Positions 9,646 to 25,991 of a stretch of 64,000 nucleotides of DNA are shown here, piece after piece. The notes below the pieces were generated by a model that was not told the DNA's origin, made no database searches, and worked only from the letters and a program-made list of their open reading frames with translations. How positions within the stretch are numbered: position 1 is the stretch's first letter; each line of letters starts with the position of its first letter. The DNA is from Candidatus Micrarchaeota archaeon (GTDB taxonomy: Archaea; Micrarchaeota; Micrarchaeia; Anstonellales; Anstonellaceae): positions 230 through 64,229 of the forward strand of contig JAKAJC010000004.1 of the NCBI GenBank assembly GCA_021814005.1, in the 5' to 3' direction. The position numbers and the translations under genes were made by a program.

Positions 9646-12600
9646 ATGTCCCGCTCTAGGCCGCCTTCATATGCAGTATATGGCATAGCCCTCATTCTCA
9701 CCCTCTCATTCCTGCTTATTCTCATTCCGCCAGCGTCTGCCGGCGCAATCTGCTACGACTCGGCCAACACGACATATGTGCAGCTCAATTCAGACTGCAA
9801 CGCGCCGGGCCAGTTCTGCAATGTCGAGGCCTATGTCTACACCATGGTTTCGGCCCCGGGAGCCACCACTCCCAAATCGGAAGGAGTCAGCGGCGGGCTG
9901 GTAATCCTCAGCTGGGGGCAGGGCACAAGCAGGGCCTGCAAAATGGTCACCGGCTCCGACGGCAAGAACACGGCCAAACTGTCAGGCCCGAACTACCCTC
10001 CCGGCGCAACCTGCTGGAACGTGCGCGCAGTCTTCTGCCCGTTCACAAAAGACAACACAATAGAAAGCGGGCAGACCACGATGGCCGCCTGCGCCGGCCT
10101 GGTCGACGACGCCGGCAAATCCATCACTCGCATTGACTGGAATCAGGCGAGTCAGCTGCCAGACTGCGCCGCGCCTGCGCATGCGGTGAACAATTCAGCG
10201 ATGAATCAGGACCTCTCGCCATTTTTCCGCCCCTCGCAGGACTCGACAATGATATGCAACAGCGGCCCTTCTGCGGGGCAGGTGTCATTCTGCTGGGGCC
10301 TGGCCCTGGTGTTCGGGCTTCTCTTCTCGGCCTCTTTCCTCTCGGGCCGCAACCCGCTGATGTTCTTTGATTTCGGGGTGGCGCGCGGCGTGCGCATGAA
10401 CCGCGCGGCCGGCATATACACTCCAATCACCCAGAACGTGTCCATCAACCCGGTTGCCATTCTGCAGGCAATCGACAAGGCCGGCAGCATGGCTTCGACC
10501 GCGGTCGGCTCAGGCAGCAAGGACGACGAATACAACAAGAACTCGGACGGCACGGAAAAAAGCTTTGGCCAGAAGATGGATGCCGCCGGCCGGAAAGGAT
10601 TTATCACAAACGCGGTCGGCAAGACAATCAACGGCCTGTCGGACAGCTTGTTCGGCAAACTGACCGGCCAGTCGAGCGACGACTTGACCAAATCGCGGAA
10701 CGCGGCCTCGAAAGGTTTCACCTTGTCCAATGCGCTCAATTCGGTCGGGCAGAGGGCCATGGAAGGAATGGTGCTCGGCGCGCTCGGCACCCTGGCGGGC
10801 GGCAAGTTCGGCAAAATCGCGCTCGCCCACACTGGCAAGGAAGTTGCCAGCCAGATGTCGAAGGCGGCCGGTCACGGCATAGCGAGCGGGCTGGAAGCCG
10901 TCACTCCCAACGCCGACCTGGCCAAGAATGAAGGCAACAAAGGCCTTAGCGACAAAGACAGGGCCGAGCAGCTGAAAGTGCAGATTGCAGCCGCGCTTGA
11001 CAAGGATGTAAGCCTCTTCAACGTCGTGTCCGACGGCCGCGGCGGTTATTCAGTCAAGATGGGCGACGTGGTGGTCGGCGGCGTCACCCGGCCGAACGGC
11101 GCTGACGGGCCGCCGCTCTGCACATTCAACGACATCAGCTCCACGGGGCTGAGAGTGTCCAACGTGCTCCAAAATCTTGCCTTCGGCTCCAGCGCCGTGA
11201 CCTGGGTAATCCTCGATCCAGGCAAAGGTGTTGTAAAGGGGGCGGATGGCAAGTGGGCGCTTGCCGACCCCAATAACAACGGCATAACCGGGGCTTCCAA
11301 CATTTTCAACCGCGAGCAGATGATTGTTTCGGCTTCCAGCGGAGGCGTGAGAATACAGCTTCCCAACGGCCAGTGGGTGTCGATGAGCGGCAGCAGCGCC
11401 TTCTCCGACCATGTCGCCACCATACTGGATTCTATCGGGCTTTTCGTTCAGGGGCAACTCAACATCTTGGATTTGCTCAAGTCCATACTTTCGCCGGTGC
11501 TGTCCGTCGGGACGGTGGCCTCCAACGCCTTTGCCGCCCAGAACCACCCGACTGTGCAGGACGCAACCCGCATTATAGAGTTCAACAACCAGAATATTTT
11601 CATCAAGTCAAGCGGCGTCTATGAAAAAGACGAAACCACCGGCGAACTCAAGCCAATCGGCACCTATGACGTGAAAACAGAAACAATCAAATTCACCAAC
11701 GACATCCATGACCCCAAAAATCCGGCAAGCGAATCTTATCTGGAGGCCGGCGCCACCTACAAGCTCTCGCCCGACGGCACCATGACACTGGTGGACAAAG
11801 CGCATCCGCCAAAAGCACTTCCGGTTGTCATCACCACTGCCGCCAAAACCTCTGTAATCACAATAGATTCAGACAGCAACATCAAGAGCAAGGGGCTTGA
11901 CGGCGAAAAGGTCGCGCCGCCGGCCGCGCCGGCCGAAAAGGTCAATGTCGCGGTCAAACTCGCGAACGTGAACGGCGGCGGGGAGGAGAAGCTCGATTTC
12001 ACAATCACCCCGATGACATCAGACCACTCCGGCACGCGCGAGCTTGTCACCCTCTCGCACTTTGACCCGGTCGCGAAAGTCAACCTCCAGGTAATCGCCG
12101 AAGTGGACAACACCAAGAAGCCGACCGATACCGACTATATCGTGGGCGTGAAAGCCATTGTCAACCGCGCGCCTGAGACCGGCGGCCATGTTGTGGTCGG
12201 AGAGGTGCTGAGCATCGGTGACAGAAACGGCACGCCGTTGAAAGACGGCAAGTTCACATTTGACAACAACACATATGGCATCGGAAGCGCCACACTCTCA
12301 AGCGATGTCAAGATTGAACTCAAGTCCCCCGCCACTCAGACTGCGCCGGTGAAAGAGATATCAATCTCACCCACTACTCCGCCCGAAAAGATGACCGTTA
12401 TTCCGCTTGGCGCAACAGCCACGAGCGGTGATCCCGACGCCAAACTTGTGCTGGCCACCACGCTTAACACCAATACCCAGTACGTGATGGACAACACAAA
12501 CGAGGCCAATCCGAAAGTGCTGGCAGTAATCAAACGCGACGAGGACGGGCACGCGACAGCATACAAACCGAATGCCGACGGCACGGCCAGCTCGACCGAA

Positions 12601-13956
12601 ATCGACAAATTCGTTTTCCACGGCACGCAGCATGAAGTCGACATCACGACCAGGCACTATCCTCTCGGCAGCGAGCCGAGCACTGTTGTCATCTCCGACA
12701 CGCGCGTGGTGGACGGCGCAAGCGGCGACGCGTGGAAGGCGCAGCAAACCCTGCCCAGCGGCGAAAAGGTCATCTCATTCAACGGCACCACCTGCACTGT
12801 GCGCGAAACCGAAGTGGCATATGGCGCGGGTTCCAAGCCAGAAATGGTGGTATATGACGGCGGCCTGCCGGTCGGCACGGCTCAGTTCGATGACAAAGGC
12901 CATCTTCAAAGCGTGACAATAGACTACGACAATCAGGGCAGGAAGCTCTACGACCTGCCGCCCGTCGGTCCCAACCCCCCGTCAGTGCCTATTGCAGTGT
13001 TTGGCGACTATGCGCCCGGCACCGTGGTAAAGGCCAGCGGGCCGGAGGGCAAGGACCCCGAGCTCACAGAATATCTCAATTCTTCGCAAATGAACCGCCA
13101 CATGGTATTCGACGCAATCGGCGCGCAACTGGCCTCGGGCATAGACAGATTCGCCTCAGGCATGGACTACTTCGGCCTGTTCGGCAAGAAATTCTCTCCA
13201 GAAGGCGGCATGCAGTGGCTCACTGCATCGCTTTACAGCGAATATGTGAAATCTCCCATCGAAACAGCGCAACCTGGCCGGGGCTTTGACAGCATCAGGC
13301 GGGACGAGCTTAGGGAACTTTACGAAAAGTCGGGCGCAGAAGACTATGACGCCATGCGCCGTGAGGCAGAAGAGAAAAAGCAGCAGGAAGTTACGAAGTG
13401 GGTTCAGGATGTTGACAAGTTCAACAAGAGCGGCGCTGCCGGCCCTACTCCGCCCATGCCAGAGCCGCTGGAAAGAACCATGCCCTCGCGCTATGTCGAT
13501 TATCTGGTCAAACAGGTGGACGCTGGCATTGCCCCCGTCCTTTCCGCCCCGTTCACGGAAGGAATTCCCTATCGCGTTCAGGACAAAGAGGCGCGGCATG
13601 AGTCAGTTCTTTTCAAAAACCAGGCGGAGTTCGACGAGCTCAACTCAAACAATGACCCGAACAAGTATGCGATGAAAATAATCGAAAAAATAAATGCATA
13701 TGAAAACGACCTGCTCAAGCGCGTGAACAGCAGCGCGCAGAGCGGCGACCCCAACTACAAGCCGTTCACCAACTTGGGCGAGGCGCTCCTCGCTCACAGT
13801 TTCGCCACAACCGAGGACCCGAACATTGTCAAGCCCACGTGGGCCAAGAATCTTGACCCAGACCTTGTGAACGAGATGAGCAATTACATGAAAGTCTCAT
13901 CGTCTGTCAAGAAACTCGACAACCTGACGAAATACTATGAAAAGCAGGGCCAATGA
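9646..13956 (+). CDS. Giant membrane protein G1 (1437 aa). It has an N-terminal signal-anchor, a roughly 220-aa Cys-containing extracytoplasmic loop, a second TM, and then a roughly 1180-aa hydrophilic domain of unknown function.
   Basis: Start taken at the Met of MSRSRPPSYAVYGIALILTLSFLLILIPPASAGA. The second TM is VSFCWGLALVFGLLFSASFL. It is the first gene of a same-strand, tightly packed cluster. Confidence 0.7.
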   Translation: MSRSRPPSYAVYGIALILTLSFLLILIPPASAGAICYDSANTTYVQLNSDCNAPGQFCNVEAYVYTMVSAPGATTPKSEGVSGGLVILSWGQGTSRACKMVTGSDGKNTAKLSGPNYPPGATCWNVRAVFCPFTKDNTIESGQTTMAACAGLVDDAGKSITRIDWNQASQLPDCAAPAHAVNNSAMNQDLSPFFRPSQDSTMICNSGPSAGQVSFCWGLALVFGLLFSASFLSGRNPLMFFDFGVARGVRMNRAAGIYTPITQNVSINPVAILQAIDKAGSMASTAVGSGSKDDEYNKNSDGTEKSFGQKMDAAGRKGFITNAVGKTINGLSDSLFGKLTGQSSDDLTKSRNAASKGFTLSNALNSVGQRAMEGMVLGALGTLAGGKFGKIALAHTGKEVASQMSKAAGHGIASGLEAVTPNADLAKNEGNKGLSDKDRAEQLKVQIAAALDKDVSLFNVVSDGRGGYSVKMGDVVVGGVTRPNGADGPPLCTFNDISSTGLRVSNVLQNLAFGSSAVTWVILDPGKGVVKGADGKWALADPNNNGITGASNIFNREQMIVSASSGGVRIQLPNGQWVSMSGSSAFSDHVATILDSIGLFVQGQLNILDLLKSILSPVLSVGTVASNAFAAQNHPTVQDATRIIEFNNQNIFIKSSGVYEKDETTGELKPIGTYDVKTETIKFTNDIHDPKNPASESYLEAGATYKLSPDGTMTLVDKAHPPKALPVVITTAAKTSVITIDSDSNIKSKGLDGEKVAPPAAPAEKVNVAVKLANVNGGGEEKLDFTITPMTSDHSGTRELVTLSHFDPVAKVNLQVIAEVDNTKKPTDTDYIVGVKAIVNRAPETGGHVVVGEVLSIGDRNGTPLKDGKFTFDNNTYGIGSATLSSDVKIELKSPATQTAPVKEISISPTTPPEKMTVIPLGATATSGDPDAKLVLATTLNTNTQYVMDNTNEANPKVLAVIKRDEDGHATAYKPNADGTASSTEIDKFVFHGTQHEVDITTRHYPLGSEPSTVVISDTRVVDGASGDAWKAQQTLPSGEKVISFNGTTCTVRETEVAYGAGSKPEMVVYDGGLPVGTAQFDDKGHLQSVTIDYDNQGRKLYDLPPVGPNPPSVPIAVFGDYAPGTVVKASGPEGKDPELTEYLNSSQMNRHMVFDAIGAQLASGIDRFASGMDYFGLFGKKFSPEGGMQWLTASLYSEYVKSPIETAQPGRGFDSIRRDELRELYEKSGAEDYDAMRREAEEKKQQEVTKWVQDVDKFNKSGAAGPTPPMPEPLERTMPSRYVDYLVKQVDAGIAPVLSAPFTEGIPYRVQDKEARHESVLFKNQAEFDELNSNNDPNKYAMKIIEKINAYENDLLKRVNSSAQSGDPNYKPFTNLGEALLAHSFATTEDPNIVKPTWAKNLDPDLVNEMSNYMKVSSSVKKLDNLTKYYEKQGQ

Positions 13957-14032: not shown

Positions 14033-14971
14033 ATGGCAGACGAACTCGAACCGCCCGTCAACCGCCTCGGCATGAGCGCGGCGGAATTCAGCGAACTGGC
14101 GATGCGCCTGCGCGCGAAGCAGCCGCAGCTGCGCGCCATTGCCCAGCGCCTGCTGGCCGCGCGGGTCGTTATCAATTCAGTCGAGGAGCCGCTGCGCGAC
14201 GCCACAAGCAAACTGCTGGAGGCCGGGGAAATCCCGCCGGCAAAACTCAAAGACCAGTTCCTGTCCATGCGCCGCGTCAAGGAGGATGCAGAGCGCACTG
14301 CCGACTTCTACAAAGCGGCCGGCAACGCCCTCTCGTCGCTCTTTCTCTCCCCGCTGCCGCAGCAAAAGCATGCGGACGCGGCCGGCAAGAGAATGATTGA
14401 GCTTGGAGACGAATGGGAAAAATGCCGCTCAACAAATAGGCCCCGCGCCGATTACATCCGCCTGCTGCTCCGCGATTTGAGTTACACGATATTCTCCCTG
14501 CCCCTCACCCCGCCCGCCGACGGCATGGGCGCGGACCAGCGGCGCGAACTGCTGATGAGCGAAGCGATGGGGCGCGCAAAAGTCCAGACTCTTCAAACGC
14601 AAATTCCATTCGACACCGGCAACGGCATCATCTACCGCTCGCTGGAGCAGGCGCAGGCCGAAGCCGCGCAGCAAGCCGGACAAAAACTGGCGCCAATGCC
14701 GGGCCAGCCTTCGCGCCGCCCGTTGTCGGCCGTGGTCTATTCCCCTCCTCCGTCCATCGCCTCCGCTCCCCGCTCCAGAGCAAGCGGCGCCGGCATAAAG
14801 CCGGACCGCGCGGAGATGGTGCGGCAGATGGCGGTGCAATCGGCCCGCACGCGGCGCATCACTCCCGCGATAAGGCCGATTCCCCCCGCCGGAAAAACAA
14901 AATCATCCAAATCAAAATCTTCAGCGCGAAAACCAGCGGCAAAGAAAAAGAAACCAGAGCGGGGTGCCTGA
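14033..14971 (+). CDS. Hypothetical soluble protein G2 (312 aa) with a Lys/Ser-rich basic C-terminal tail
   Basis: No TM segments. The C-terminus is KTKSSKSKSSARKPAAKKKKPERGA. It lies 3 nt upstream of the first membrane-module gene. Confidence 0.6.
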   Translation: MADELEPPVNRLGMSAAEFSELAMRLRAKQPQLRAIAQRLLAARVVINSVEEPLRDATSKLLEAGEIPPAKLKDQFLSMRRVKEDAERTADFYKAAGNALSSLFLSPLPQQKHADAAGKRMIELGDEWEKCRSTNRPRADYIRLLLRDLSYTIFSLPLTPPADGMGADQRRELLMSEAMGRAKVQTLQTQIPFDTGNGIIYRSLEQAQAEAAQQAGQKLAPMPGQPSRRPLSAVVYSPPPSIASAPRSRASGAGIKPDRAEMVRQMAVQSARTRRITPAIRPIPPAGKTKSSKSKSSARKPAAKKKKPERGA

Positions 14972-14974: not shown

Positions 14975-16141
14975 ATGGTCGATTTTCTGGTGGCTGTCCC
15001 ATACGGCATAGCCATCGGCACCGGAATCGTCGCATTCGCCTACATGATAGGCTCGCTTCTGCAGTCGGACGCCATGAAATCGTGGAGCCGCCTTGAGCTT
15101 GGAGAGCTTGTGGTCTCGGCCATTCTTGTGGTGCTGGTTGCCGAGGCGCTCAGTCCGGCGGGGCAGGCCGGCATCATCAAGGCCTTCACCGGCGTGTCGA
15201 TGGGAATAGACGAGCTGCAGTCGAGGATGTATGTCTACATGGAGCTGCCGCTGGAAAAAGTGACAGAAGCCGTCGCAATAAGCAGCATGCATCTCAGCCG
15301 CATCATTTCCTACAATTACAACTACCAGCTGCCAATTCCCTACTTTTCGCCCACCGGCTCATCCAGCCCGGGCGCGGGAGCGGGGCCGCTGCAACTGTCG
15401 GTAATGATTGGCATGGATTCCACCGCTCTCAATCTCATGCTGGTCCATGCGGTCAAGCTGGTGTTTGTCTTCCTGATTTTCCTGCTGGGCACGTTCTTCA
15501 TGCCGCTCGGCATCATCCTGCGCTTCATCCCGCCTTTGCGGAAAATCGGAAGCATGCTGCTGGGCACGGGCCTGGCCGTCTATCTGGTGTTTCCCATCGC
15601 CATCTTCTGGGGCACGTCACTGCTGGCATTTTCGGTGAGCCCGCCCGATTACGACGCTGGCCGCCTGGTGCAGGACCCCGGCCGGCCTCCAACTTCCGGA
15701 TTCGTGTGCAGCACCGTCACGTCCGCCCTCTACAGCGCGGGCGAGCAGATTCCCGCATGGATAATCGGCGGAATAGTCTGCATCCCGACAATCATCACCG
15801 GCGGATACGTGGCCTGCGTCGGCACGCCCGGCTCGCCTCCGACATACGGGGGCGGAGTTGCCGGCATCGTTGCATACCTGATGTGGCTGTTCCAGTACGG
15901 CTTCCCCATCGCCACAACACAGTCGCTCAAGAGCGCGGGCGACACGCTGACGCCGGACTTCGTCTCCTCCGGCGTGTACCAGCCCATGGTGGGCTACCTT
16001 CTTCCATTGGCGGTGGTGCGAAATCTTGCGGTTCTTTTCATCGTAATCCTCGCGCTGGCGGCAACAATAATCCTGGCGCGCCAGTTCGCGCAGGTGCTGG
16101 GCGCGGAAGGGCAGTTCTACGGGCTGACAAAACTGGTGTAA
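14975..16141 (+). CDS. Polytopic membrane protein, paralogous module family member M1 (388 aa)
   Basis: Shares three motifs with five neighbours. The TM1 end is AYMIG, followed by KSWSRLEL. The central motif is FMPLGIILRFIPPLRKIGSMLLGTGLAVYLVFP. The C-terminal motif is YLLPLAVVRNL...LGAEGQFYGLTKLV. Confidence 0.7.
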   Translation: MVDFLVAVPYGIAIGTGIVAFAYMIGSLLQSDAMKSWSRLELGELVVSAILVVLVAEALSPAGQAGIIKAFTGVSMGIDELQSRMYVYMELPLEKVTEAVAISSMHLSRIISYNYNYQLPIPYFSPTGSSSPGAGAGPLQLSVMIGMDSTALNLMLVHAVKLVFVFLIFLLGTFFMPLGIILRFIPPLRKIGSMLLGTGLAVYLVFPIAIFWGTSLLAFSVSPPDYDAGRLVQDPGRPPTSGFVCSTVTSALYSAGEQIPAWIIGGIVCIPTIITGGYVACVGTPGSPPTYGGGVAGIVAYLMWLFQYGFPIATTQSLKSAGDTLTPDFVSSGVYQPMVGYLLPLAVVRNLAVLFIVILALAATIILARQFAQVLGAEGQFYGLTKLV

Positions 16142-16144: not shown

Positions 16145-17197
16145 ATGGAAAACACGGCAGGAAAAATCGGTTCGGTTTCCCGTTTCGGGTTCGCCCCACT
16201 CGCAGTCCTCTCCCTGCTGTTTCTAGTCTCATCCTCTTCGGCCATCTTCGAGCCGCAGCTCTCGTGCTTCAACCAGACCTACAACATGGTGTATGATTTC
16301 GGCTCGCCAATCATCGCCGTCATTTTCATCATGGGCGTGCTCATCGCGATTGCGTACATGCTCGCGCAGCTTTTGGAAAAACCCGAGCTGTCGGTGTGGG
16401 CCAAGAGCGAAATAGTCACCCTGGGCTTTTCCATCCTTCTCATCGGCGCGGTGGTGGGCACGTTCGGACTTTCCTGCACAATCTCGAACTCGATGGTGTT
16501 TTCCGACTCGCGCGAATTCGCCAACAGCAGCGTGGTGGGGTCCGGCGCGCCGGCCAACGTTTTCACCAGCCCCGCGCAGAGGGCGGTGCAATATATCGAC
16601 AAGCTCACGCAGACCTACGGCCTGCGCCTCGCATCCGACCTCACCCGCCAGGCGGTGAACGACCAGCTCGGCGCGGTGGCATACGCGTACTGGTCCGTGC
16701 CGGTGCTTGACGGCGGCGGGCTTGCATACAAAGCCAACCAGCGCGCATGGGCGGCGCAGAAAGACATTCTCATCGACCTCTACATGCCGATGATGATTTC
16801 GCTGCAGGTGCAGAAATTCATGCTCAACCTGGCCATGGTCGGCGTGCTGAACATTCTTCTGCCGGCCGCGCTGCTTTTGCGCACGTTCTTCTTTTCGCGC
16901 GACATCGGCAACCTGCTCATCGCGCTCTCGTTTGCAATCTTCTTTGCCCTGCCGGTAGTCTATTCGTTCGGCTTCGAGGCGTCGGCAAATCTGCAGAAAC
17001 AGCTCTGTCCGTCGGGCTGCGACCCGCTCAATCCGTTCGGGCAGCTGAACATAGTCAAGGACCGCGTGGTTGGCGACAGCTATGCGAGAATCGGCTTCAT
17101 CTCCACACAAGCGATTTTAATCCCTAATCTCGCGCTGGTTGTGATGATAACCATGACCATGGCCCTAAACAAGGCCTTGAGAGGGTTCACAGGATGA
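16145..17197 (+). CDS. Polytopic membrane protein, paralogous module family member M2 (350 aa)
   Basis: The motifs are AYMLAQLLEKPELSVWAKSEI, LLPAALLLRTFFFSRDIGNLLIALSFAIFFALP and a C-terminal ILIPNLALVV...LRGFTG. It overlaps G5 by 4 nt (ATGA). Confidence 0.7.
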   Translation: MENTAGKIGSVSRFGFAPLAVLSLLFLVSSSSAIFEPQLSCFNQTYNMVYDFGSPIIAVIFIMGVLIAIAYMLAQLLEKPELSVWAKSEIVTLGFSILLIGAVVGTFGLSCTISNSMVFSDSREFANSSVVGSGAPANVFTSPAQRAVQYIDKLTQTYGLRLASDLTRQAVNDQLGAVAYAYWSVPVLDGGGLAYKANQRAWAAQKDILIDLYMPMMISLQVQKFMLNLAMVGVLNILLPAALLLRTFFFSRDIGNLLIALSFAIFFALPVVYSFGFEASANLQKQLCPSGCDPLNPFGQLNIVKDRVVGDSYARIGFISTQAILIPNLALVVMITMTMALNKALRGFTG

Positions 17198-20100
17198 GAA
17201 ATGAAAACGAAAACCCGGCGCGCCGCGAATCCGGCGTTTGCTTTGCGCCAGTCAATACGGCGCCAGCCGGCTTCCTGCCGCTGCACGCGCCGCATGTTTT
17301 CCTCTTCCTCCTCTGCCTTCTCTGTATCTCTCCAATAATTTTCTCCCAAAACACCACAATCCAGCCCGTGCTCACCGCCCAGAACGCGACTTTCGGGTTC
17401 GACAATTACGTGCGGGCAACCCTCGCGGCCGCCGCCCTCATGGCCGCAATCATGGCTCTGGTCTACATGGCAGGCATATTTTTCCAGAGCGAGGATGCCA
17501 AACAGCTGGCGCGCACTGAAATTCTGCAGACTGCTCTCAGCGTGATAATAGTCGCATTTCTTCTGGCCATTCTGCTCGGCGTCGACACCGGCCTTCGCCT
17601 TACCTCGGCCGAAATAGTCTCGCCCTGCGTGGGCCGCACCCTGCCCGCAAGCATCACGTCCGCCACTCTTCTCAACCAGTATGCATTCTGCTATGCGCAG
17701 GGCCTCAACGAAATGGCCATCGCGCAGGGCGACACCACAATCCGCAAGTCTGTCACATTTGCCAAGAAAGCGTATCGCATGGAAGGTTTCCAGACAGATT
17801 TGTGGTGGCTGCTCTACGGCGGCCTGACGCGCCGGCCCGATGCCAACCTGCGCCTTGACTCGGAAATCATGGGACAAGAGTTCACTCTTCTCACGTCATT
17901 CATGGTGAGCCTGCAGGGGCAGCTGGCATTTCTGCAATATATCGTGCCCGCGCTCGCGCCGGCGCTGCTTTTCCTTGGCGTCATCCTCCGCTCGCTTTTC
18001 TTCACCCGCAAACTTGGTGGCATGATGCTGGCAGCGGGAGCCGGATTATTGCTGGTGTGGCCGGCCACCTATCTGCTCTCATGGTTCACATTGCAGGTTG
18101 CGGTGTTCGGGCCGTCGGTGATGGGCGAGGAGCCGGGCTCGACCTGTCCAACCTCATGCAAAATCCTTCCCCCCGCCGGCTACAACATCTCAACAGCAAA
18201 TCCCGATTCATGGGGCAGTCCGCCTGCGGGTTCGCCTTATGCAACCGGCGCAATCAGCGCAAAGCAAATGGCAAGCGCCGGCGGCAGCTCGATTGCGCCT
18301 GACATCGGCGACGAGGCGGCCTGGAAACTGCGGGGCGTCCAGACCTGTTATCCGCAATACAATTACACTGAAGACAAGACAACCGGCACCCGCACATACA
18401 CTCTGCCGGCCGGCTATTCCAGCAGCGTGCCCGTGCAGTCTTCGGACAAGTGCCCCTCGGAGTGCCGCTTCCTTCCCACCCCGACGGATTTGAACTGCGA
18501 CCTGGCCGCCTGTGACAACATACCAATAGCCTGCAAGGCAATCAGGGCCATGAACCTTTCCACCTCGCCCCTGCCGAACCCGCCGGACAACTGCAACTCG
18601 TGCACCAGCTGCCCGGCGTTCTGCCGCACAATTTTGCCGCAGGTGAAATATGCAAACCCCGCAAACCCGGCCGCCGGAGTTGTGCCGACAACGAACGCGA
18701 ATTCATGCTCGGCCAATCCCGGCAATGCAACCCTATGCCCGCTCTACTGCCGCTCCTATTTGCACACGGACGCCAGCAACACGATTTCCTATTCCACTCC
18801 CGACTGCCAGGCCGCATGCCAAGCGACTCTTGACAACAAGAAAGACGCGGCAACGAGCCAGCCCGACTGCATGCTCGGCATTCCGGCCGCCATGATGGAG
18901 TGCAACACCCCCAACGTGTGCGGCCCTGCCATGAACCTTGAGGCTGCCATCGCCTCGGGCCGCACCGACCTCTGCCCGATTGAATGCCGCGTGAATTTCA
19001 ATTCATCTGGCACCGAGGACAGATACAAGGACCCGACATTCAACCAATACTGCACCGGCTCCGGCAAGTTCGGCACCGCGTGCGACACGCAATGCCCGAG
19101 CACGTGCAAGGTGAAAGCAAGCGCCGAGAACGCGGCGCTGCCAAATTCATTCTCGCTGGGCGTGCCCAACTCGTTCATAGTTTCGACCGGCGCAGGCAGT
19201 GTTCTTTGCGCGGCAGCCCCCACTTTCACAAACGGCCAGATGGACTCGAGCGTGAACGGGCAGTGCGCACGCTGCCCGCTCTCATGCCGCCTGCGCAACC
19301 CCTCCTCCATCCTCGACCTTGACAACAACCACAGCACTTACTTCTTCTCGCAGTCGCATTATGCCCTCACCTGCAATTACCGCAACACCACCCCAATCAT
19401 CCTGTACTCCGGCGCGTGCAGAAATTCCACATTCCCGCCCGGCTGGCTTGCGTTCGCTTCCGAAGATCCATCCGGCATTTCGTTGAGCCAAATCGGCCGC
19501 GGCCCGCCGGAATGCGCGCCAACCGCCCGCATTTACCTGCGCATGGATTCGTCAGACCCGCTCTGCCCGCTCTTTCTGGCCCCAATCCCGCCTTACATCA
19601 AGGACGGCACTCTTTCAAACGACCCTTCCAATTCCGCGGTGTCTGCCATCATTCCGCCAAACACCGACGTGTCGGCCGAATGCTCCACTCCCGATGCGCA
19701 GAAATACTGCCTCGGCAAAGACCCGCAGGGCCAGCCCTATTGCGACATTTCCTGCCAGCCAGACCGCGCCGTGAACGGGCCGTTCTACTGCCACTTGACC
19801 GACCTCTACAGCCCGCTCTCCAGCATTCCCGACAACACGCAGCGCTGCGGCGCCTGTTCGAGCCCGGCAGCAGACAATTCCAAGGGGCCGCAATGCCAAG
19901 TCATGCTGACAAGCGGCAGCACCCTCTATCTGCCCAAAGGCTGCGACCCGTCCTGCGCGCCCGGCTCGCTTGACACTGCGACCGGAATAATCCTCAACCC
20001 CGACACAGACCCCAAGTCGAGGGCTTCATGCGGCGGCTTCTGCTATCCGCGCCTGCCCATCCCCTCGTGCAGCGCATATGCCCCCGCCAGCACAACCAAT

Positions 20101-21423
20101 CCCAACGGCCGCGCGTTCGCCTCCTGTGCCGCCTGCCCAACCGACTGCCGCTATGATTATCTCACTGCCGCGGGCATCAGGCGCCCAAACAGCCAGGACA
20201 ACTACTGCGGCTGGAGCTTCACCGCGCCAACCGCATGCTTTTCCATCACGCTGGAGCGCCTGCGCGGCAGCGACATCCCAAGCGTGAACAACACCCGCTA
20301 TTATTCGTGCACGCAGACCGAAGCAGGCCAATACCACTGGGTGCGCACAAGCAGCGGCGTTGACAACAGAAGCGACAGCGGCTGCAACGCGGCCTGGTAT
20401 CCGATTGGCCACTTCACCAACCAAACCGTTGCCAACCTCGCGTGCGGCCCAGGCACTTTCAGCAACACCACGAGCGATGTCTACTCATGCACGCCGGTCC
20501 ACAAGTATCCGGCCCTCGACAGCCTTGTCACCTCTTCGGGCGGGCCTTCCGATTACCGCGAATGCGGAGACATAAGCGTCAACGGCCAGAATCCGAACAA
20601 CAACCTCTGCGGCGCGCGCACGTTCGGCGGCGCAAGCGTCCAGCTGTGCAAGAACGACCGCGCGGCAACAGATTCGTGCTTTGCCCACTTCAACGCGCTC
20701 GCGGTTGCCTGCCTGCCGATTACCGGCGTGGTGAATGATTACACAGACCCCGCCAACAATCCGACCAAGGCGGAGGAGAGCTGCCAGAACTGCCCGCTCT
20801 TCTGCCGCATAGACAACGGCGGCCAGATATGCTCGCCGTGGTCTGCCGGCGGCGAGCCTCCCAAATGTGATTTCCCCAACCAGTGCGACCGGCGCACTGC
20901 TCAGGGCAGCGGCTACTGCGGCATCCCGTCATCAGCATTCAAAATTGGCCAGGGCTGCGCGAATTACACCGGCGGCTCCGGCGTGGGCTGCCCCGCCCGC
21001 TGCCGCGTTTCACTGCCGTCCGGCAACGTGCCATACGGCTGCTCGGGCGGTGAAATCGGCAACGCATGCTCGCCCGGCAATCTTGATTCGGCATGCACCG
21101 CCACCCCGCCCGACAATCCGTGCGCAGGCTGCGGCGAATGCGACACCGACTGCCGCTCCACGCCTTATGTGCGGCAGAACTGCGACGACCTCTGCCTGCC
21201 GACAGACTTTGCCACCGGAGCCTCGCCCATCACGCCCAAGGACCTTTTGATGTCGTGGGAAGGCGCGTCGGGCAACCCCGACTGGCGCTCATTGGGCTCT
21301 TTGGGCATCGCCGCTTTCCTGCTGCCGATTCTCAACATCATACTCACTCTTGCATTCATCCGCAGCCTCTCGCCGGTGCTGGGCGGCGACATCGAGATTC
21401 CGGGAATACTCAAGGTGCTGTGA
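17194..21423 (+). CDS. Giant Cys-rich membrane glycoprotein G5 (1409 aa). An N-terminal paralogous membrane module is fused to a roughly 1000-aa Cys-rich ectodomain, followed by a C-terminal TM.
   Basis: The motifs are VYMAGIFFQSEDAKQLARTEI and LAPALLFLGVILRSLFFTRKLGGMMLAAG. The ectodomain has at least 13 copies of C-[PD]-x-x-C-[RKQ], for example CPSECRF, CPAFCRT, CPLYCRS, CPIECRV, CPLSCRL, CPTDCRY, CPLFCRI, CPARCRV and CDTDCRS. It also has many N-x-S/T sequons. The C-terminus is AFLLPILNIILTLAFIRSLSPVLGGDIEIPGILKVL. Confidence 0.75.
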   Translation: MRNENENPARRESGVCFAPVNTAPAGFLPLHAPHVFLFLLCLLCISPIIFSQNTTIQPVLTAQNATFGFDNYVRATLAAAALMAAIMALVYMAGIFFQSEDAKQLARTEILQTALSVIIVAFLLAILLGVDTGLRLTSAEIVSPCVGRTLPASITSATLLNQYAFCYAQGLNEMAIAQGDTTIRKSVTFAKKAYRMEGFQTDLWWLLYGGLTRRPDANLRLDSEIMGQEFTLLTSFMVSLQGQLAFLQYIVPALAPALLFLGVILRSLFFTRKLGGMMLAAGAGLLLVWPATYLLSWFTLQVAVFGPSVMGEEPGSTCPTSCKILPPAGYNISTANPDSWGSPPAGSPYATGAISAKQMASAGGSSIAPDIGDEAAWKLRGVQTCYPQYNYTEDKTTGTRTYTLPAGYSSSVPVQSSDKCPSECRFLPTPTDLNCDLAACDNIPIACKAIRAMNLSTSPLPNPPDNCNSCTSCPAFCRTILPQVKYANPANPAAGVVPTTNANSCSANPGNATLCPLYCRSYLHTDASNTISYSTPDCQAACQATLDNKKDAATSQPDCMLGIPAAMMECNTPNVCGPAMNLEAAIASGRTDLCPIECRVNFNSSGTEDRYKDPTFNQYCTGSGKFGTACDTQCPSTCKVKASAENAALPNSFSLGVPNSFIVSTGAGSVLCAAAPTFTNGQMDSSVNGQCARCPLSCRLRNPSSILDLDNNHSTYFFSQSHYALTCNYRNTTPIILYSGACRNSTFPPGWLAFASEDPSGISLSQIGRGPPECAPTARIYLRMDSSDPLCPLFLAPIPPYIKDGTLSNDPSNSAVSAIIPPNTDVSAECSTPDAQKYCLGKDPQGQPYCDISCQPDRAVNGPFYCHLTDLYSPLSSIPDNTQRCGACSSPAADNSKGPQCQVMLTSGSTLYLPKGCDPSCAPGSLDTATGIILNPDTDPKSRASCGGFCYPRLPIPSCSAYAPASTTNPNGRAFASCAACPTDCRYDYLTAAGIRRPNSQDNYCGWSFTAPTACFSITLERLRGSDIPSVNNTRYYSCTQTEAGQYHWVRTSSGVDNRSDSGCNAAWYPIGHFTNQTVANLACGPGTFSNTTSDVYSCTPVHKYPALDSLVTSSGGPSDYRECGDISVNGQNPNNNLCGARTFGGASVQLCKNDRAATDSCFAHFNALAVACLPITGVVNDYTDPANNPTKAEESCQNCPLFCRIDNGGQICSPWSAGGEPPKCDFPNQCDRRTAQGSGYCGIPSSAFKIGQGCANYTGGSGVGCPARCRVSLPSGNVPYGCSGGEIGNACSPGNLDSACTATPPDNPCAGCGECDTDCRSTPYVRQNCDDLCLPTDFATGASPITPKDLLMSWEGASGNPDWRSLGSLGIAAFLLPILNIILTLAFIRSLSPVLGGDIEIPGILKVL

Positions 21424-21428
21424 GAAAA

Positions 21429-22718
21429 ATGGCGCGAGCTCAAAAAACAAAAACAAAAAATGAAAAAGAAAACGGCTGCTCCCGTTTCGCGAGCATTGGC
21501 TTCGCGCGCGCCAGCCCTGCGCGCGCCAGCCCCGCGTTTTCTTCGGCGCGCTCGAGCGCGCTGCGGCATTTTGTTTTCTTGTTTATTACGGCCTCTCTGT
21601 TCCTTATCCCATCAATTCACGCGGCCGCCGCATGGCAGCCGGCAGTTTTCGCAGCCGTGCTCATCTCCGTCTCCGTGCTGGCAGTCGTTTACATGATTGT
21701 AACCGTGCTGAAATGGGACAGGTTCAAGGGCATCATAAAAGACGAGCTCGGCCAGACGTTCATCACATTTCTTCTGGTGGTCCTGCTTGTTGCAGGCATG
21801 TCCGAAGGCGAAACCCAAGCGTCGAAACTTGTGTGCGGCATTTCCGGCATGCCAGACTCCGGCTTCTGCCCGACTCCCGCGCGCGACACCATGATTTTCT
21901 GCAAAACTGCCGGAAGCAATCCCACCACATGCCCCATCACCGGCAGCCAGCCGCTCAACAACTGGGCCCTCTCGCTCAACACCAACGCGCAGTCTCTCCT
22001 GAGCACCAACCTGCTCGCCAAGGCGCTGGAGTTCAACCAAAAACTCGGCTATGTGAGCTCGGTGTCGGGCTTCTGCAACATGCTTGGCGTGGGCTTCTCC
22101 ATCGCCGGCTGCTCCACTTACGGCGTGCTGCGCGGACCCGTCGGCCAGCTGCTCAACGCAATCGGCATCGGATTGATGGATTTGCAGGCAGAGCGGATTC
22201 TGCTCCAGCTCAACACTGCCGGTTTCACGCTGAGCCTGCTTTTGCCGCTTGGCATCCTGCTCCGCGCGCTGCACTGGACCAGAAAGGCGGGCGGCACGCT
22301 CATCGCCCTCGCACTCTCGCTCTACTTCATTTTCCCCGCGTCGCTTTTGCTTGGGCAGGCGATGGCAGACCAGTTCATCAAGACGGGCAGCCCGTATCAG
22401 GCCCTCGCAGCCGGCCCGACGTTTCCGGCAATGAGCGGCAGCTACAATCCGCTCGACACATCTACCGTCGAATGCAATCCATTTGACCCAAGCACCGGCA
22501 AGATGGTCAACACCATGAACAGCTTCCTCACGCGCAGTCCTTCCGACCCCGCGAACGTCAAGAATCCATCCACCATCGACCAGATTCTTTTCGTTGTGAT
22601 GATACGCAACCTGATGATAACCATCGTGGCGCTCACAGTCACCCTCTCCGCCACGCGCGTGCTGGGCCACGCCCTTGGCGCGGAAATCGACGTGTGGGGC
22701 ATTGCGAGGCTGAGCTAA
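21429..22718 (+). CDS. Polytopic membrane protein, paralogous module family member M4 (430 aa)
   Basis: Start taken at MARAQKTK; the track's 21093 start overlaps G5 and is unlikely. The motifs are AVVYMIVTVLKWDRFKGIIKDEL, LLPLGILLRALHWTRKAGGTLIALALSLYFIFP and a C-terminal LGAEIDVWGIARLS. Confidence 0.7.
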   Translation: MARAQKTKTKNEKENGCSRFASIGFARASPARASPAFSSARSSALRHFVFLFITASLFLIPSIHAAAAWQPAVFAAVLISVSVLAVVYMIVTVLKWDRFKGIIKDELGQTFITFLLVVLLVAGMSEGETQASKLVCGISGMPDSGFCPTPARDTMIFCKTAGSNPTTCPITGSQPLNNWALSLNTNAQSLLSTNLLAKALEFNQKLGYVSSVSGFCNMLGVGFSIAGCSTYGVLRGPVGQLLNAIGIGLMDLQAERILLQLNTAGFTLSLLLPLGILLRALHWTRKAGGTLIALALSLYFIFPASLLLGQAMADQFIKTGSPYQALAAGPTFPAMSGSYNPLDTSTVECNPFDPSTGKMVNTMNSFLTRSPSDPANVKNPSTIDQILFVVMIRNLMITIVALTVTLSATRVLGHALGAEIDVWGIARLS

Positions 22719-25700
22719 ATGGAGAAAAAGAACCGGCCGCATTCACCGAAGTTCTCATCGCCATCGCCCATGCCGCACCTTGCGCTGTTATTTCTCTTGG
22801 CCGCAGTTCTGCTCGCTCCATTTGTTTCGGCAGACATAACCGCAACAATTGATTACAACAGCGCCCCTCCCCCGCCCGCCTCGCCCTGGCTCACCATAAC
22901 TCCGATGACTGTGGGCGTGAGCGCCGACTGCGGCACCATACCGCCCTGCGTGCCGCCGTTCAGAATCAATTTCCAGTTCGTCTGCGGCGGCACCCCTGTG
23001 CAGGAAACATTCACAAACGTCCCGCCGGCCTCCCGAACAGCATACACCTATTATCCAAACTCCGACCCCGCATGCCGCGAGCCGACGCCGCTGAATTCCA
23101 TAATCACAATCACCGACACTACTGGACAATCATTTTTCACGCAAAGTTTCCCCGTAGCTCTGGCAAATGGTACAGACACCACTCCGCCGGGCATCTCGTG
23201 GAATCCCGTGCCGCCGCCAGAATATGATGCGGGCGCAACCATCAGCTTCGGCTTCACAGTCACCGACCCTGACGACAACACCAACGCGATTCCGACATTG
23301 TATCCAAATGTCGCCACGGCCGAGGTGGAAATCACCGACTTGGGAAACGGCCAGGTCTATGGGCCATATGACATGGGCCCGTTCCCTCCACCGAACGGCT
23401 GGAGCACCCAAGTCTTTCATATAGAAGGCACCCCCAGCGCCGACCACACTGTTGAAATCAACTGCAGCCGCCTCAACTGCGTCGGAGATTTGCAAATAAA
23501 AGTCAGGTCCCACGACCCTGCGGGCCTTGGCATTACCCTGCCGCCAATGATTGTGCGCAGGCGCGGCGGCCTGGTTCTTCCCTCTCCCATATTGGGCATC
23601 ATCCCGCCCGCACCCGTCTGCCCCAACGCGGCCATCCGCGCCATGGCAAACCAGCCGTCTGGCTCCCCTGCAATAGACAGCCATGAATACAGCTGGTCCA
23701 TCACTCCAAATCCTCCGGTGCAGATAGATACTGTGCCCGACACCGCCAAAACGGGCGCCACTTCAGACACATTCGACTGCGCGGCGCGCAACTGCCAGAA
23801 CGGCCAGACCGTGTCAGTAAGCGTGCTCGCCATCGCCGGCGCCCAGCGCTCCCCTCCCAACGCCACCCTGATTCTCGTCGACGGCAGCAGCCTTGACTGC
23901 AGAATGCCGGCAGCCCCGCTTCTCACCAACCAGACAATATCCATCTCGCCCTTCAACGCGATAGTGCTGGCAAACCAGAGCAACAACGATCCGCGAGCCG
24001 TGCTCCACCGCTATGTCTGGACCATGGCCGACGGCACAGTCATCGAATCCCCGCTCATGCCCCTGCCAATCCAAAATGTCACATCAGCTCCCGTGCCCTG
24101 CGCCGCGAATCCAAACCTCTACTGCCCGTCGGGAGGAACCGTCCTTCTCACGGTCTATTCATACACTGCGCAGAATGTGCAATCCCAGCCAGCATTTATC
24201 TCCATCTTAATTCCGGCGCGCTCAGCCCTCAATCCGCCGGTGGTTGTCACCAAGCCCTTCAGCCCGTATGACAACGACACCATCGTGCTTGTTGCAAACA
24301 ACCAGAACGAAGAGGTGGACCGGCACCAGTACCGCCTGCTCATCATCAATGCGGACGGCACTATATACCAAGAAATCGATGCTCCAATCTACGACACTGT
24401 TTCCACAACCGCGGCAGACAAACACACCACCACATCCAAGCCATTCACCTGCACGACAAGCGTATGCAGGGGCCGCTTTGCCAACATAACCGCCCGCGCC
24501 TACAATTCCCTTGGCTGGTCAGACTGGTCTCCCTGGCTGAGCGTCCCATTCGGCCCGCCGCCGATTCCTGCGCCAATACTTGTGCGCATCGACCCGATTC
24601 CACCCGGCAATTCGATGCTGTCAGACATCAATTCCGGACTTGGCGCGCTCCTCAACACCTCGCTTGCCTACAGCTTCACAATAACCCCGCCCGCCGGCCA
24701 GCCGCCGTTCAACGACTATATTCCAACCCTCACAGTCAACGGCGCAGACGCGCCGGTTTCATCCAGCCGCTCGGGCAACAATCTCATCATCACTCTGGCC
24801 TGCACCCCGTCATCATGTCCGAACGGCTCAATCCTCACATACAAGGTAATCGGCGTGCAGGCGGGAGCGAATTCCACTCCCCTGTATTTCTCGCTTGTAG
24901 TTCCGCAGGCGAGCGGCATGCCCGCGCAGGTGGGCGTCATCTGTTCCGGCGCCGAACTGCAAAGATGGCTGCAGGTGATGGCCATCGGCATGATGGCCCT
25001 TCTCGCCCTTATCGCGCTCGTCTATATGATTGGCGAGGCGCTGCACCACCCGCAGCTTTTGGAATGGTCCAAATCAGAAATCGGGCACGTGGGCATGACC
25101 ATCATCCTCTTCTTCCTCATCGTATGGCTGATTCAGTTCCAGTGCAACCTGACGGTGGGCGAATTCCTCAACTGGTCTGGCTCGTCAAACCCCCTCTACT
25201 CGTCAGGCATGACGCTTTCACAGGCAGGTCTCAAATCGCTTGAATGGGGCATCACCCAGACGCGGCTCACCCTCGTGGCCATGCGCTACGAGATGGGAGT
25301 GCTCAACATGCGGGCCACCTATTCCTCCTACTCCACCCAGTTCCCCGGAATGGGCGGCAACGGCTACAGCTTCATGCCCTTCTCGGGCGATTACACCCTG
25401 CTCGGCTCGTTCGGCATGCTCACCAACCTCAACTCCACTTTCCTGCTCGCGCTCCTCTTCCAGCTATTCTCGCTGTTCTTCTTTTCCTCTTCCAGCGGGC
25501 TGTTCATATTCCTCGTGCCGGTCGGCCTCATACTGCGCTCGGTTCCGTTCATACGCGGATTCGGCGGCTCGCTGGTGGCCATCGGCATCGGCTTCTACAT
25601 ATTCTATCCGATTCTGCTTGCCTTCACCGGCCTTCTGCTCGCGCCGCTCTACTCGGGCATTGACTCCACCAGCCAGCTCGGCATCGCCGACGCCTCGCAG

Positions 25701-25991
25701 CTGGAGGCAAAAGAGCTTGCGATTCACACGCCATTCAGCAGCACCGGCCTTGCTGGCGACAACATTTTCAGCTACAATCCGGGCGACCCGTATCCGGGGC
25801 CGCTGATGCCCACCGCCGGCAAGGACTCGCCGCCGAAGCTGGGAATATATTTCAATCTAACTGCCCTGAATTTCCTGCGCGCCATCCTCATTCCGACCGC
25901 AGGGCTGATAGTGACCGTGTCATTTGTGCGCGACCTCGCGGCCATTTTCGGCGAAGAGGTGGACGCGTCGAAACTGATTGCCATGATTTAG
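22719..25991 (+). CDS. Giant surface glycoprotein G7 (1090 aa). It has a signal peptide, a roughly 700-aa sequon-rich ectodomain and a C-terminal paralogous membrane module.
   Basis: The signal peptide is LALLFLLAAVLLAPFVSADI. There are many N-x-S/T sites (NGT, NCS, NQT, NAT, NVT, NDT, NIT, NTS, NGS, NST). The module motifs are LVYMIGEALHHPQLLEWSKSEI, LVPVGLILRSVPFIRGFGGSLVAIGIGFYIFYP and a C-terminal ILIPTAGLIV...FGEEVDASKLIAMI. Its ATG abuts the stop of the upstream gene. Confidence 0.75.
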   Translation: MEKKNRPHSPKFSSPSPMPHLALLFLLAAVLLAPFVSADITATIDYNSAPPPPASPWLTITPMTVGVSADCGTIPPCVPPFRINFQFVCGGTPVQETFTNVPPASRTAYTYYPNSDPACREPTPLNSIITITDTTGQSFFTQSFPVALANGTDTTPPGISWNPVPPPEYDAGATISFGFTVTDPDDNTNAIPTLYPNVATAEVEITDLGNGQVYGPYDMGPFPPPNGWSTQVFHIEGTPSADHTVEINCSRLNCVGDLQIKVRSHDPAGLGITLPPMIVRRRGGLVLPSPILGIIPPAPVCPNAAIRAMANQPSGSPAIDSHEYSWSITPNPPVQIDTVPDTAKTGATSDTFDCAARNCQNGQTVSVSVLAIAGAQRSPPNATLILVDGSSLDCRMPAAPLLTNQTISISPFNAIVLANQSNNDPRAVLHRYVWTMADGTVIESPLMPLPIQNVTSAPVPCAANPNLYCPSGGTVLLTVYSYTAQNVQSQPAFISILIPARSALNPPVVVTKPFSPYDNDTIVLVANNQNEEVDRHQYRLLIINADGTIYQEIDAPIYDTVSTTAADKHTTTSKPFTCTTSVCRGRFANITARAYNSLGWSDWSPWLSVPFGPPPIPAPILVRIDPIPPGNSMLSDINSGLGALLNTSLAYSFTITPPAGQPPFNDYIPTLTVNGADAPVSSSRSGNNLIITLACTPSSCPNGSILTYKVIGVQAGANSTPLYFSLVVPQASGMPAQVGVICSGAELQRWLQVMAIGMMALLALIALVYMIGEALHHPQLLEWSKSEIGHVGMTIILFFLIVWLIQFQCNLTVGEFLNWSGSSNPLYSSGMTLSQAGLKSLEWGITQTRLTLVAMRYEMGVLNMRATYSSYSTQFPGMGGNGYSFMPFSGDYTLLGSFGMLTNLNSTFLLALLFQLFSLFFFSSSSGLFIFLVPVGLILRSVPFIRGFGGSLVAIGIGFYIFYPILLAFTGLLLAPLYSGIDSTSQLGIADASQLEAKELAIHTPFSSTGLAGDNIFSYNPGDPYPGPLMPTAGKDSPPKLGIYFNLTALNFLRAILIPTAGLIVTVSFVRDLAAIFGEEVDASKLIAMI

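Follow-up and report, generated by a model that had tools for sequence, protein, structure and literature searches.

Extracellular domains that contain 6-12% cysteine and recurring CxxC-type motifs are anchored at the membrane in Giardia variant-specific surface proteins (VSPs), ciliate surface antigens, and the furin-like regions of EGFR. Such domains are presumed to form disulfide-braced, protease-resistant surface coats, and their length varies widely among relatives. In small Tim proteins, CHCH proteins (twin Cx3C/Cx9C), and the helix motifs of toxins and defensins, cysteines at positions i and i+4 lie on one helical face, and each bonds a neighbouring element. Among archaea, the SPEARE proteins of Nanohaloarchaeum antarcticus are giant surface proteins with protease, adhesion, and nuclease domains. 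Micrarchaeota and other DPANN archaea rely on physical contact with a host cell, and we know of no proteins identified as building the contact site. Here, we describe G5, a 1409-residue cysteine-rich membrane protein encoded in a 64,000-nucleotide stretch (the window) of a Candidatus Micrarchaeota archaeon genome (contig JAKAJC010000004.1). G5 shares the above features of VSPs and furin-type proteins and, like the SPEARE proteins, is a very large, lineage-specific extracellular protein of a nano-sized, host-dependent archaeon with a presumed part in host contact.

G5 is the third of six tandem paralogs, and most of its length is a cysteine-rich domain in which a short motif recurs. On balance, we lean towards G5 being a disulfide-braced surface scaffold in a six-subunit envelope complex, with host contact or envelope anchoring as its likely role.

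The G5 protein and its recurrent cysteine motif

The open reading frame (ORF), originally predicted to encode a 1409-residue protein carrying a membrane module, is a real gene: 11 public metagenome contigs carry a called gene with an identical product. The G5 start codon and the stop codon of the preceding gene overlap by 4 nt (ATGA). The parts of the protein, which contains five transmembrane helices (TM1 to TM5), are as follows, with the basis of each assignment in parentheses:

17194-21423, plus strand: G5 gene, 1409 aa, ATG start, third of six tandem paralogs (ORF call, public gene calls)
17296-17346, plus strand: putative N-terminal signal peptide or anchor, hydrophobic core at residues 35-51 preceded by an Arg-containing n-region (sequence reading)
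17416-18108, plus strand: N-terminal part of the membrane module, TM1-TM4 (alignment with the five paralogs; AlphaFold2 (AF2) model of paralog m397, predicted local distance difference test (pLDDT) score 72)
18109-21291, plus strand: inserted Cys-rich ectodomain, residues 306-1366, ~1,060 aa, 80 Cys (Cys count, homolog alignment)
21292-21420, plus strand: TM5 (residues 1367-1389) and predicted cytoplasmic tail RSLSPVLGGDIEIPGILKVL, common to the paralogs (paralog alignment)

Specifically, the first part of the G5 module comprises TM1 (residues 75-97), a predicted cytoplasmic loop (98-109), TM2 (110-130), predicted extracellular loop 1 (131-243, with 2 Cys), TM3 (244-265), the loop RSLFFTRKLGG (266-276), and TM4 (277-305). 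In the shared module, the N-terminal half has two helices, the first of which terminates in YM.G; a short loop bearing a conserved Glu joins them, and a loop of ~110 residues follows. The C-terminal half consists of a helical hairpin turning through a basic loop, LLR..F..R..GG, a variable loop, and a final helix that leads through LG[GA][DE] into an amphipathic tail. The AF2 model of the 397-residue paralog, m397, based on a 24-sequence alignment, has a pLDDT of 72.3 and contains five membrane helices, with a long extracellular helical hairpin bearing two beta-hairpins between TM2 and TM3.

Two proposals made for G5 from its sequence hold up against these alignments. First, the final helix does re-use the C terminus of the module: helix and tail align with those of the five neighbouring paralogs. 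Second, the giant domain is an insertion into a module loop, since the Cys-rich region of ~1,060 residues occupies the variable TM4-TM5 loop of the shared module. At this site, the five window paralogs and some short-loop G5 orthologs of other Micrarchaeota have only 45-130 residues.

An extracellular location had also been proposed and agrees with the charges of the module. In every paralog, the TM3-TM4 loop bears two or three positive charges (three in RSLFFTRKLGG) and lacks negative ones; by the positive-inside rule, it is predicted to be cytoplasmic, so the G5 insert would lie outside the cell. The same placement is suggested by the signal-peptide-like starts of the proteins and by paralog 5, which has a domain of ~690 residues between its signal peptide and TM1. 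The argument that N-x-S/T sequons indicate glycosylation did not survive: the G5 ectodomain contains 13 sequons versus 11.8 ± 3.0 expected, and these are not enriched.

G5 contains 85 Cys (6% of its residues), of which 80 lie within residues 318-1334. The ectodomain is indeed Cys-rich, with fewer Cys than the roughly one hundred first estimated. The core of the domain (residues 315-1345, 1031 aa) contains 102 Pro and 8 His, and its acidic residues slightly outnumber the basic ones.

The recurrence of the motif was evaluated using 5000 composition-preserving shuffles of residues 310-1340. The loose form, C[PD]xxC[RKQA], occurs 13 times versus a mean of 0.19 in the shuffles (maximum 3), and the strict form, CPxxC[RK], occurs 10 times versus 0.036 (maximum 2), so the motif exceeds what composition would give. 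All 13 instances listed in the original prediction were located in G5; the loose motif starts at residues 318, 420, 473, 515, 594, 634, 694, 850, 917, 981, 1200, 1266, and 1316. Plain CxxC in G5 alone is near expectation (8 versus 6.1). The gaps between motifs, 40-219 residues, are as irregular as first described, and a search of the G5 DNA for a tandem repeat yielded none.

In 40 orthologous ectodomains collected from genome loci, Cx3C is enriched 3.3-fold (545 versus 164 expected), Cx9C 1.8-fold, and Cx2C 1.7-fold (314 versus 183 expected). CC (7 versus 223 expected) and CxC (11 versus 197 expected) are together depleted about 20-fold. At 505 Cx3C sites in these orthologs, Cys is present at -3 in 38%, Pro at +1 in 55%, and Arg or Lys at +5 in 65%, with Val, Ile, or Tyr at +6 and an enrichment of Pro at +8 to +10. 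From these residue frequencies, the full unit is C-x2-C-P-x2-C-[RK]-hydrophobic. Thus, the pattern first given, C-[PD]-x-x-C-[RKQ]-hydrophobic, captured the recurrence, but the real unit is longer, C-x2-C-P-x2-C-[RK]-[VIY], often with Pro at +8 to +10. The motifs of G5 and its membrane-proximal block are located as follows:

18145-18162, plus strand: motif 1, CPTSCK, residue 318, directly after TM4; Cys invariant in 11 homologs, Pro nearly so
18451-18468, plus strand: motif 2, CPSECR, residue 420
18601-18627, plus strand: motif 3, CTSCPAFCR, Cys 470, 473, and 477, full C-x2-C-P-x2-C-R form
18736-18753, plus strand: motif 4, CPLYCR, residue 515; the -3 Cys is absent in the G5 lineage and present in 10 of 12 long-form orthologs, a distribution that columns 545, 1023, and 1033 also have
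18973-18990, plus strand: motif 5, CPIECR, residue 594; C, P, E, C, and R invariant in seven orthologs
19093-19110, plus strand: motif 6, CPSTCK, residue 634
19264-19290, plus strand: motif 7, CARCPLSCR, Cys 691, 694, and 698, full form, invariant
19741-19758, plus strand: degenerate motif CDISCQ, residue 850; CPxSC[KL] in four of seven aligned orthologs
19942-19959, plus strand: degenerate motif CDPSCA, residue 917
20125-20151, plus strand: motif CAACPTDCR, Cys 978, 981, and 985, full form
20782-20808, plus strand: motif CQNCPLFCR, Cys 1197, 1200, and 1204
20989-21006, plus strand: motif CPARCR, residue 1266; C, P, A, C, and R invariant in seven orthologs
21121-21198, plus strand: membrane-proximal block CAGCGECDTDCRSTPYVRQNCDDLC, residues 1310-1334, C-x2-C-x2-C-x3-C ... 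C-x3-C (homolog alignments)

The expectation that homologs would carry the motif was borne out. The Cys, Pro, and Arg of the motif vary little or not at all across seven orthologs with 23-70% identity. The invariant positions include C318/P319/C322, C420/P421/C424/R425, C473/P474/C477, C594/P595/E597/C598/R599, C694/P695/C698/R699, C1200/P1201/R1205, and C1266/P1267/A1268/C1270/R1271. Across the subfamily, few parts of the ectodomain are conserved as well as the block at residues 1310-1334. Four distant members with inserts of 400-1,000 residues (P0007, P0151, P0162, and P0178) are likewise full of motif strings, such as CGICPAECREI, CVGCPTFCRT, and CKQCPVTCRI.

Comparison of the ectodomain profile with itself using hhalign revealed internal similarity confined to 10-50 columns around the motif, at probabilities of 60-93%. 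Some units share 30-50 further upstream columns (93% for 515 versus 694 and for 420 versus 981), and the larger segments 613-706 and 1133-1212 align at 86%. This pattern suggests that the motif units arose as ancient, heavily diverged duplications and do not form a regular repeat.

These data bear on whether the ectodomain could be a diverged member of a known eukaryote-type repeat family, such as the furin-like, laminin-EGF, TNFR, or Giardia VSP repeats. The resemblance is genuine in that the protein is membrane-anchored, the domain contains about 8% Cys, C-x2-C and C-x3-C are frequent, and the furin-like repeats of EGFR themselves contain C-x2-C-x3-C-R strings. We nevertheless regard membership as exceedingly improbable. 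The irregular spacing leaves no tandem array of fixed-length units, and the internal similarity is limited to the surroundings of the motif. Moreover, hmmscan of the G5 ectodomain against Pfam returned no family at E ≤ 10, and the four full-length homologs scanned with it returned incidental matches only, none to Cys-repeat families. G5 had no NCBIfam match at E ≤ 0.01, and searches of PDB sequences with the ortholog profile and the module profile returned nothing (E ≤ 1 for the ectodomain search). These results, together with the depletion of CC and CxC, uphold the original view that the domain is not an EGF, furin-like, TNFR, metallothionein, or zinc-knuckle domain. A 2026 preprint on 'cysteine-rich repeats' concerns eukaryotic repeats that are unrelated to G5.

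The state of the cysteines

The motif was first proposed to be either a disulfide staple or a metal site. The former is favoured by the number and inheritance of the Cys, and the latter is less favoured. Specifically, Cys outside hydrophobic segments and after the signal peptide were counted in 37 Cys-rich orthologs. The extracellular total is even in 30 of these proteins, which have 26-108 such Cys each. The seven orthologs with odd counts each have a Cys beside the signal-peptide core that was removed by the hydrophobicity mask; by manual reading, all seven totals are even once it is counted. On the insert alone, the count is even in 24 of 41 proteins, the mixed result being due to one size class, through the Cys of its N-terminal tail and loop 1. 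In members of that class, tail and loop 1 together hold an odd number of Cys, as does the insert, implying a disulfide between the two segments and thus their location on the same side of the membrane. The G5 orthologs of 1,100-1,530 residues (L010, L014, L015, L020-L029, L032, and L045) have extra Cys-rich mini-domains, each with 5-19 Cys, in their extracellular N-terminal tail. Of 14 such orthologs examined, 13 have an odd Cys count in tail plus loop 1, and the count of the main insert is then odd too.

An alignment of 12 long-form orthologs contains 67 columns in which Cys never varies. P0006, alone among the orthologs, lacks both C1213 and the final Cys of CPLFCR, C1204; from this, we predict a C1204-C1213 disulfide. 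Cys columns 505 and 559 share one pattern of presence and absence, and columns 512, 545, 1023, and 1033 share another. The even totals and the paired gain and loss are the indirect sequence evidence expected of a disulfide-rich domain in which all Cys are paired.

An array of Zn, Cu, or Fe-S sites, used for metal sequestration, redox sensing, or extracellular electron transfer, appears quite unlikely. Three close Cys, as in C-x2-C-P-x2-C, do look like a metal-binding loop, and four-Cys sites would also yield even Cys counts. The best argument for metal is CAGCGECDTDC (residues 1310-1320), whose C-x2-C-x2-C-x3-C spacing is that of ferredoxin-type [4Fe-4S] sites and is kept across the subfamily. 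A ferredoxin assignment was rejected: this is the one conserved site of its kind, its last Cys is followed by Arg, Lys, Thr, or Gln and not by Pro, and neither Fer4 nor any other Pfam family matched the ectodomain at E ≤ 10. A second C-x2-C-x2-C-x3-C site (467-477) lacks conserved spacing in the orthologs. Further, Cys are lost in pairs, not in triads or tetrads, and at motif 515, different orthologs keep different pairs of the three Cys. A metallothionein-type cluster would require abundant CC and CxC, both of which are strongly depleted in G5 orthologs. A zinc ribbon or knuckle was also rejected: Cx2C is only modestly enriched, and in 38% of Cx3C sites it is the first part of C-x2-C-P-x2-C, the 1031-residue core has only 8 His, and there is no Pfam zinc-finger match. 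Finally, proteins exported by the Sec pathway are threaded unfolded and, as opposed to those exported by the twin-arginine pathway, cannot be loaded with Fe-S clusters in the cytoplasm. As a loop between two membrane helices behind a signal peptide that is not of the twin-arginine type, the G5 insert would be threaded in this way, excluding cytoplasmic Fe-S loading. Disulfides are therefore favoured over metal sites on the basis of Cys parity, paired Cys loss, the scarcity of His, the avoidance of CC and CxC, and the unfolded threading of the loop.

An AF2 model of ectodomain residues 305-1345, based on a 12-sequence alignment, has a pLDDT of 35.6 and a predicted TM-score (pTM) of 0.26, which are too low for a fold search or for mapping disulfides. 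In this low-confidence model, all 13 motifs form a Cys-Pro followed by one helical turn, and 22% of the chain is helical. The model hints that the motif may be a Pro-capped turn in which the i and i+4 Cys share one face.

The six-paralog cluster and its probable extracellular partner

The five neighbouring paralogs of G5 share 18-26% identity. The junctions between the cluster genes in the window are 1-13 nt or a 4-nt overlap. These paralogs, identified by module alignment, and two further large genes of the region are as follows:

14975-16141, plus strand: paralog 1, 388 aa
16145-17197, plus strand: paralog 2, 350 aa; short TM4-TM5 loop with a single CPSGC
21429-22718, plus strand: paralog 4, 429 aa; start taken from public-contig gene calls
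22719-25991, plus strand: paralog 5, 1090-aa ORF (1073 aa as called); predicted N-terminal extracellular domain of ~690 aa after a signal peptide, with the module C-terminal
26005-27198, plus strand: paralog 6, 397 aa, modelled with AF2
27200-31864, plus strand: giant, predicted secreted Cys-rich protein, 1554 aa, 75 Cys; signal peptide ending in lipobox-like LSG|C
9535-13956, plus strand: 1473-aa predicted secreted or membrane protein; homologs in 28 of 76 loci, in variable position

A search of 1.84 billion proteins with the module profile yielded 2,893 representatives at E ≤ 0.001 and 1,939 at E ≤ 1e-10. Members are unnamed wherever a name is on record, and homologs with a source name come from Candidatus Micrarchaeota or Micrarchaeia. 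A further search using an 11-sequence profile added only P0179, a 605-residue partial G5 homolog of 58% identity located on a 5.2-kb contig and labelled 'Acidobacteria bacterium 37-65-4' in NCBI. This contig is probably a mis-binned Micrarchaeota fragment.

The distribution of the cluster was surveyed by scanning one genome per species. The 76 loci found are all from Micrarchaeota (Anstonellaceae, Bilamarchaeaceae, Micrarchaeaceae, and unclassified members), plus one Iainarchaeum. Exactly six module genes lie on one strand in 37 of the 46 loci that are free of contig-end cuts, and in 23 of those with six module genes, the order of best-hit labels is the same as in the window. Based on this fixed gene order in one tightly packed operon, the six paralogs most likely form one hetero-oligomeric envelope complex. 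We found no description of the six-gene cluster in the literature on Micrarchaeota and DPANN gene clusters.

Neighbouring genes were evaluated by scanning 10 of the 25 most widespread neighbour families of the 76 loci against Pfam. Eight of the 10 match Pfam families, mostly housekeeping: methionine aminopeptidase, KsgA, TBP, DUF655, a small kinase, ELP3, LeuRS, and a Lon-like protease. The remaining two had no Pfam match, and none of the 10 is a secretion ATPase or a pilin. The cluster thus appears to be core-genomic and not a mobile element. Other genes of the window mark it as archaeal; they encode GatD/GatE, a thermosome subunit, DUF2070, a Lon-like AAA+ ATPase, HerA, proteasome alpha, SBDS, and NMD3. 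Among the nine large proteins encoded between 9.5 and 31.9 kb, none reached the curated Pfam or NCBIfam threshold, the only match being a sub-threshold one to DUF4971.

Tandem extended VirB6 paralogs occur in Rickettsiales, and by analogy, the six paralogs could serve as channel subunits of the VirB6/TrbL/CedA type in an archaeal machine that transfers DNA or protein, the Cys-rich insert being an extracellular extension. This is very unlikely. A Foldseek search against the PDB returned nothing below E = 0.88, alignment of the 24-sequence module profile with Agrobacterium tumefaciens VirB6 using hhalign gave a probability of 0.1%, and none of the six paralogs matched the Pfam TrbL family (PF04610). 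Nor did the 10 scanned neighbour families include a VirB4/HerA/VirD4-type ATPase or a pilin.

Across the loci, the third paralog falls into three classes according to the size of its TM4-TM5 loop:

Loop of 45-210 aa: 0-7 Cys, with 0-4 Cys at the lower end of about 45 aa
Loop of 310-460 aa: 23-42 Cys
Loop of 690-1,200 aa: 71-102 Cys

The Cys-rich insert is, judging from these sequences, a lineage-variable accessory of the third paralog. Its presence was compared with that of a giant Cys-rich ORF directly downstream in loci whose sequence continues for 4.5 kb or more past the last module gene, the ORF being defined as one of 1,165-1,681 residues with 45-98 Cys or as a relative of 27200-31864 detected by phmmer. 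Such an ORF occurs in 31 of 34 loci with a Cys-rich G5 and in none of 11 loci with a Cys-poor G5 (Fisher's exact p = 3.6e-8, uncorrected for phylogeny). This co-occurrence suggests joint action of the downstream protein and the G5 ectodomain outside the cell, the former probably being a partner of G5. The two do not appear to be related to one another, since BLASTP of the G5 ectodomain against the other large proteins of the window returned nothing significant. Speculatively, lipidation of the LSG|C Cys would leave 74 Cys in the downstream protein, an even number. The only other families common in the 76 loci are relatives of this 1554-aa protein (41 loci) and of the 1473-aa protein (28 loci); the latter may be an accessory of the cluster.

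Several further features of the window were observed. Upstream of the six paralogs, 14033-14971 (plus strand) encodes a 312-residue helical protein with a Lys/Ser-rich tail that was not detected in the other loci. Two more Cys-rich ORFs, at 4346-5536 and 5355-6413 (both plus strand), have 19 and 16 Cys (about 4.5-4.8%) and no Pfam match; they overlap, so their starts are uncertain. A 1375-residue ORF at 50-4177 (minus strand) has only 4 Cys and no Pfam match and could encode a surface protein. The GC skew is about -0.19 across 18000-30000, versus -0.02 to -0.10 elsewhere in the window, and the skewed stretch coincides with a long run of plus-strand genes rich in Pro, Ala, Ser, and Cys. The G+C-rich operon also yields many long, spurious antisense ORFs, such as 21612-22742 (minus strand).

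Proposed role and comparison with known systems

In the scheme that we propose, G5 would be subunit 3 in a set of six paralogous membrane proteins, each with five helices, that occur in Micrarchaeota and in a single Iainarchaeum genome; the TM4-TM5 extracellular loop of subunit 3 would have expanded in the G5 lineage to a domain of ~1,060 residues. Essentially all 80 Cys of the insert would be disulfide-bonded, forming about 40 bonds, with one further likely pair in loop 1. The C-x2-C-P-x2-C-[RK]-hydrophobic unit would act as a staple: a single, Pro-capped helical turn presenting two or three Cys on one face, each bonded to a different neighbouring segment. Such staples could make a rigid domain of a Pro/Gly/Ser-rich chain with little regular secondary structure. 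This domain and the giant secreted Cys-rich protein from the end of the operon would jointly form an exposed structure on a six-subunit membrane base, whose most likely role would be cell-surface contact through attachment to a host cell or anchoring of the cell's own envelope.

Several points weigh against this scheme. The hetero-oligomer is proposed from gene order and copy number, and the co-occurrence of G5 and the downstream protein may reflect few gain or loss events. Parity and co-loss of Cys are also compatible with all-Cys metal sites having even numbers of ligands, and the parity count rests on heuristic segment boundaries. No disulfide-forming enzyme was identified in the window, and the confidence of the ectodomain model is low. 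Finally, the ectodomain (~40% identity) does not display the rapid divergence relative to the module (46%) that is frequent in host-recognition proteins.

A further, rather unlikely reading differs from the scheme only in the biological role, and the observations favour neither role over the other. In this reading, the cluster would be a housekeeping envelope element, such as a membrane stalk that anchors the S-layer, and the Cys-rich insert would be a stabilising spacer with no part in host contact. In its favour, the cluster is in the core genome of the 76 Micrarchaeota and Iainarchaeum species genomes retrieved, including lineages without a Cys-rich insert, and the extracellular hairpin of the m397 model would suit a stalk. 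The S-layer protein of Ca. Micrarchaeum harzensis, a PF05123 member nearly devoid of sulfur amino acids, lacks a clear anchor, and a second, stalk protein with a membrane helix was proposed by the authors who described it (bioRxiv 10.1101/2021.04.28.441871). The PF05123 domain was not detected in the larger window ORFs scanned, which counts against a stalk for such a layer. G5 itself was rejected as a PF05123-type S-layer protein: it lacks a PF05123 match and contains 6% Cys, versus a nearly sulfur-free S-layer protein.

A bolder form of the scheme, which we consider unlikely, is that the paralogs form a previously unrecognised envelope machine, specific to Micrarchaeota and one or more Iainarchaeum genomes, that consists of a hetero-hexameric pedestal. 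In lineages with the Cys-rich insert in subunit 3, the pedestal would bear a disulfide-knotted tip that, with the giant secreted Cys-rich protein or lipoprotein, constitutes the long-sought apparatus for docking to the host and possibly for bridging the two cells. The staple would then define a new class of archaeal extracellular fold.

If the host-contact reading is true, the cluster would offer a way into the mechanism of DPANN episymbiosis. Should that reading fail, it still represents a new, widespread family of membrane proteins and a new type of Cys-rich domain. Approximately 40 predicted extracellular disulfides are unusual in a prokaryotic protein, and one may ask how such a chain becomes oxidised and folded in an archaeon whose genome is reduced. 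The system offers testable targets: a defined motif, the predicted C1204-C1213 disulfide, a predicted partner (27200-31864), and natural presence/absence variants across families.

The locus also differs from each of the described systems named above. In contrast to VirB6/TrbL/TrwI type IV secretion, the six paralogs occur in a chromosomal, housekeeping setting, with neither an ATPase nor a pilin among the scanned neighbour families. As compared with the SPEARE proteins, G5 has no recognisable domain, is predicted to be stapled by Cys, and is one of six paralogous membrane subunits. The twin Cx3C/Cx9C proteins share with G5 orthologs the enrichment of both spacings and a helical turn, as modelled for the 13 motifs, although this structural likeness comes from a low-confidence model. 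Those proteins are small domains with 2-4 disulfides, whereas about 40 are predicted in the 1,000-residue chain of G5, whose motif is further marked by a Pro cap and by a basic residue that follows its second Cys. G5 differs from the VSPs and furin-type proteins in belonging to an archaeon, in having C-x2-C-P-x2-C-R in place of CxxC, in the irregular rather than tandem arrangement of its motifs, and in matching no Pfam family at E ≤ 10. Its domain is located inside a loop of a five-helix protein and not ahead of a single C-terminal anchor. A disulfide-rich surface domain belongs to a known class of proteins, while the motif, the domain, and the six-gene system of G5 are without described relatives.

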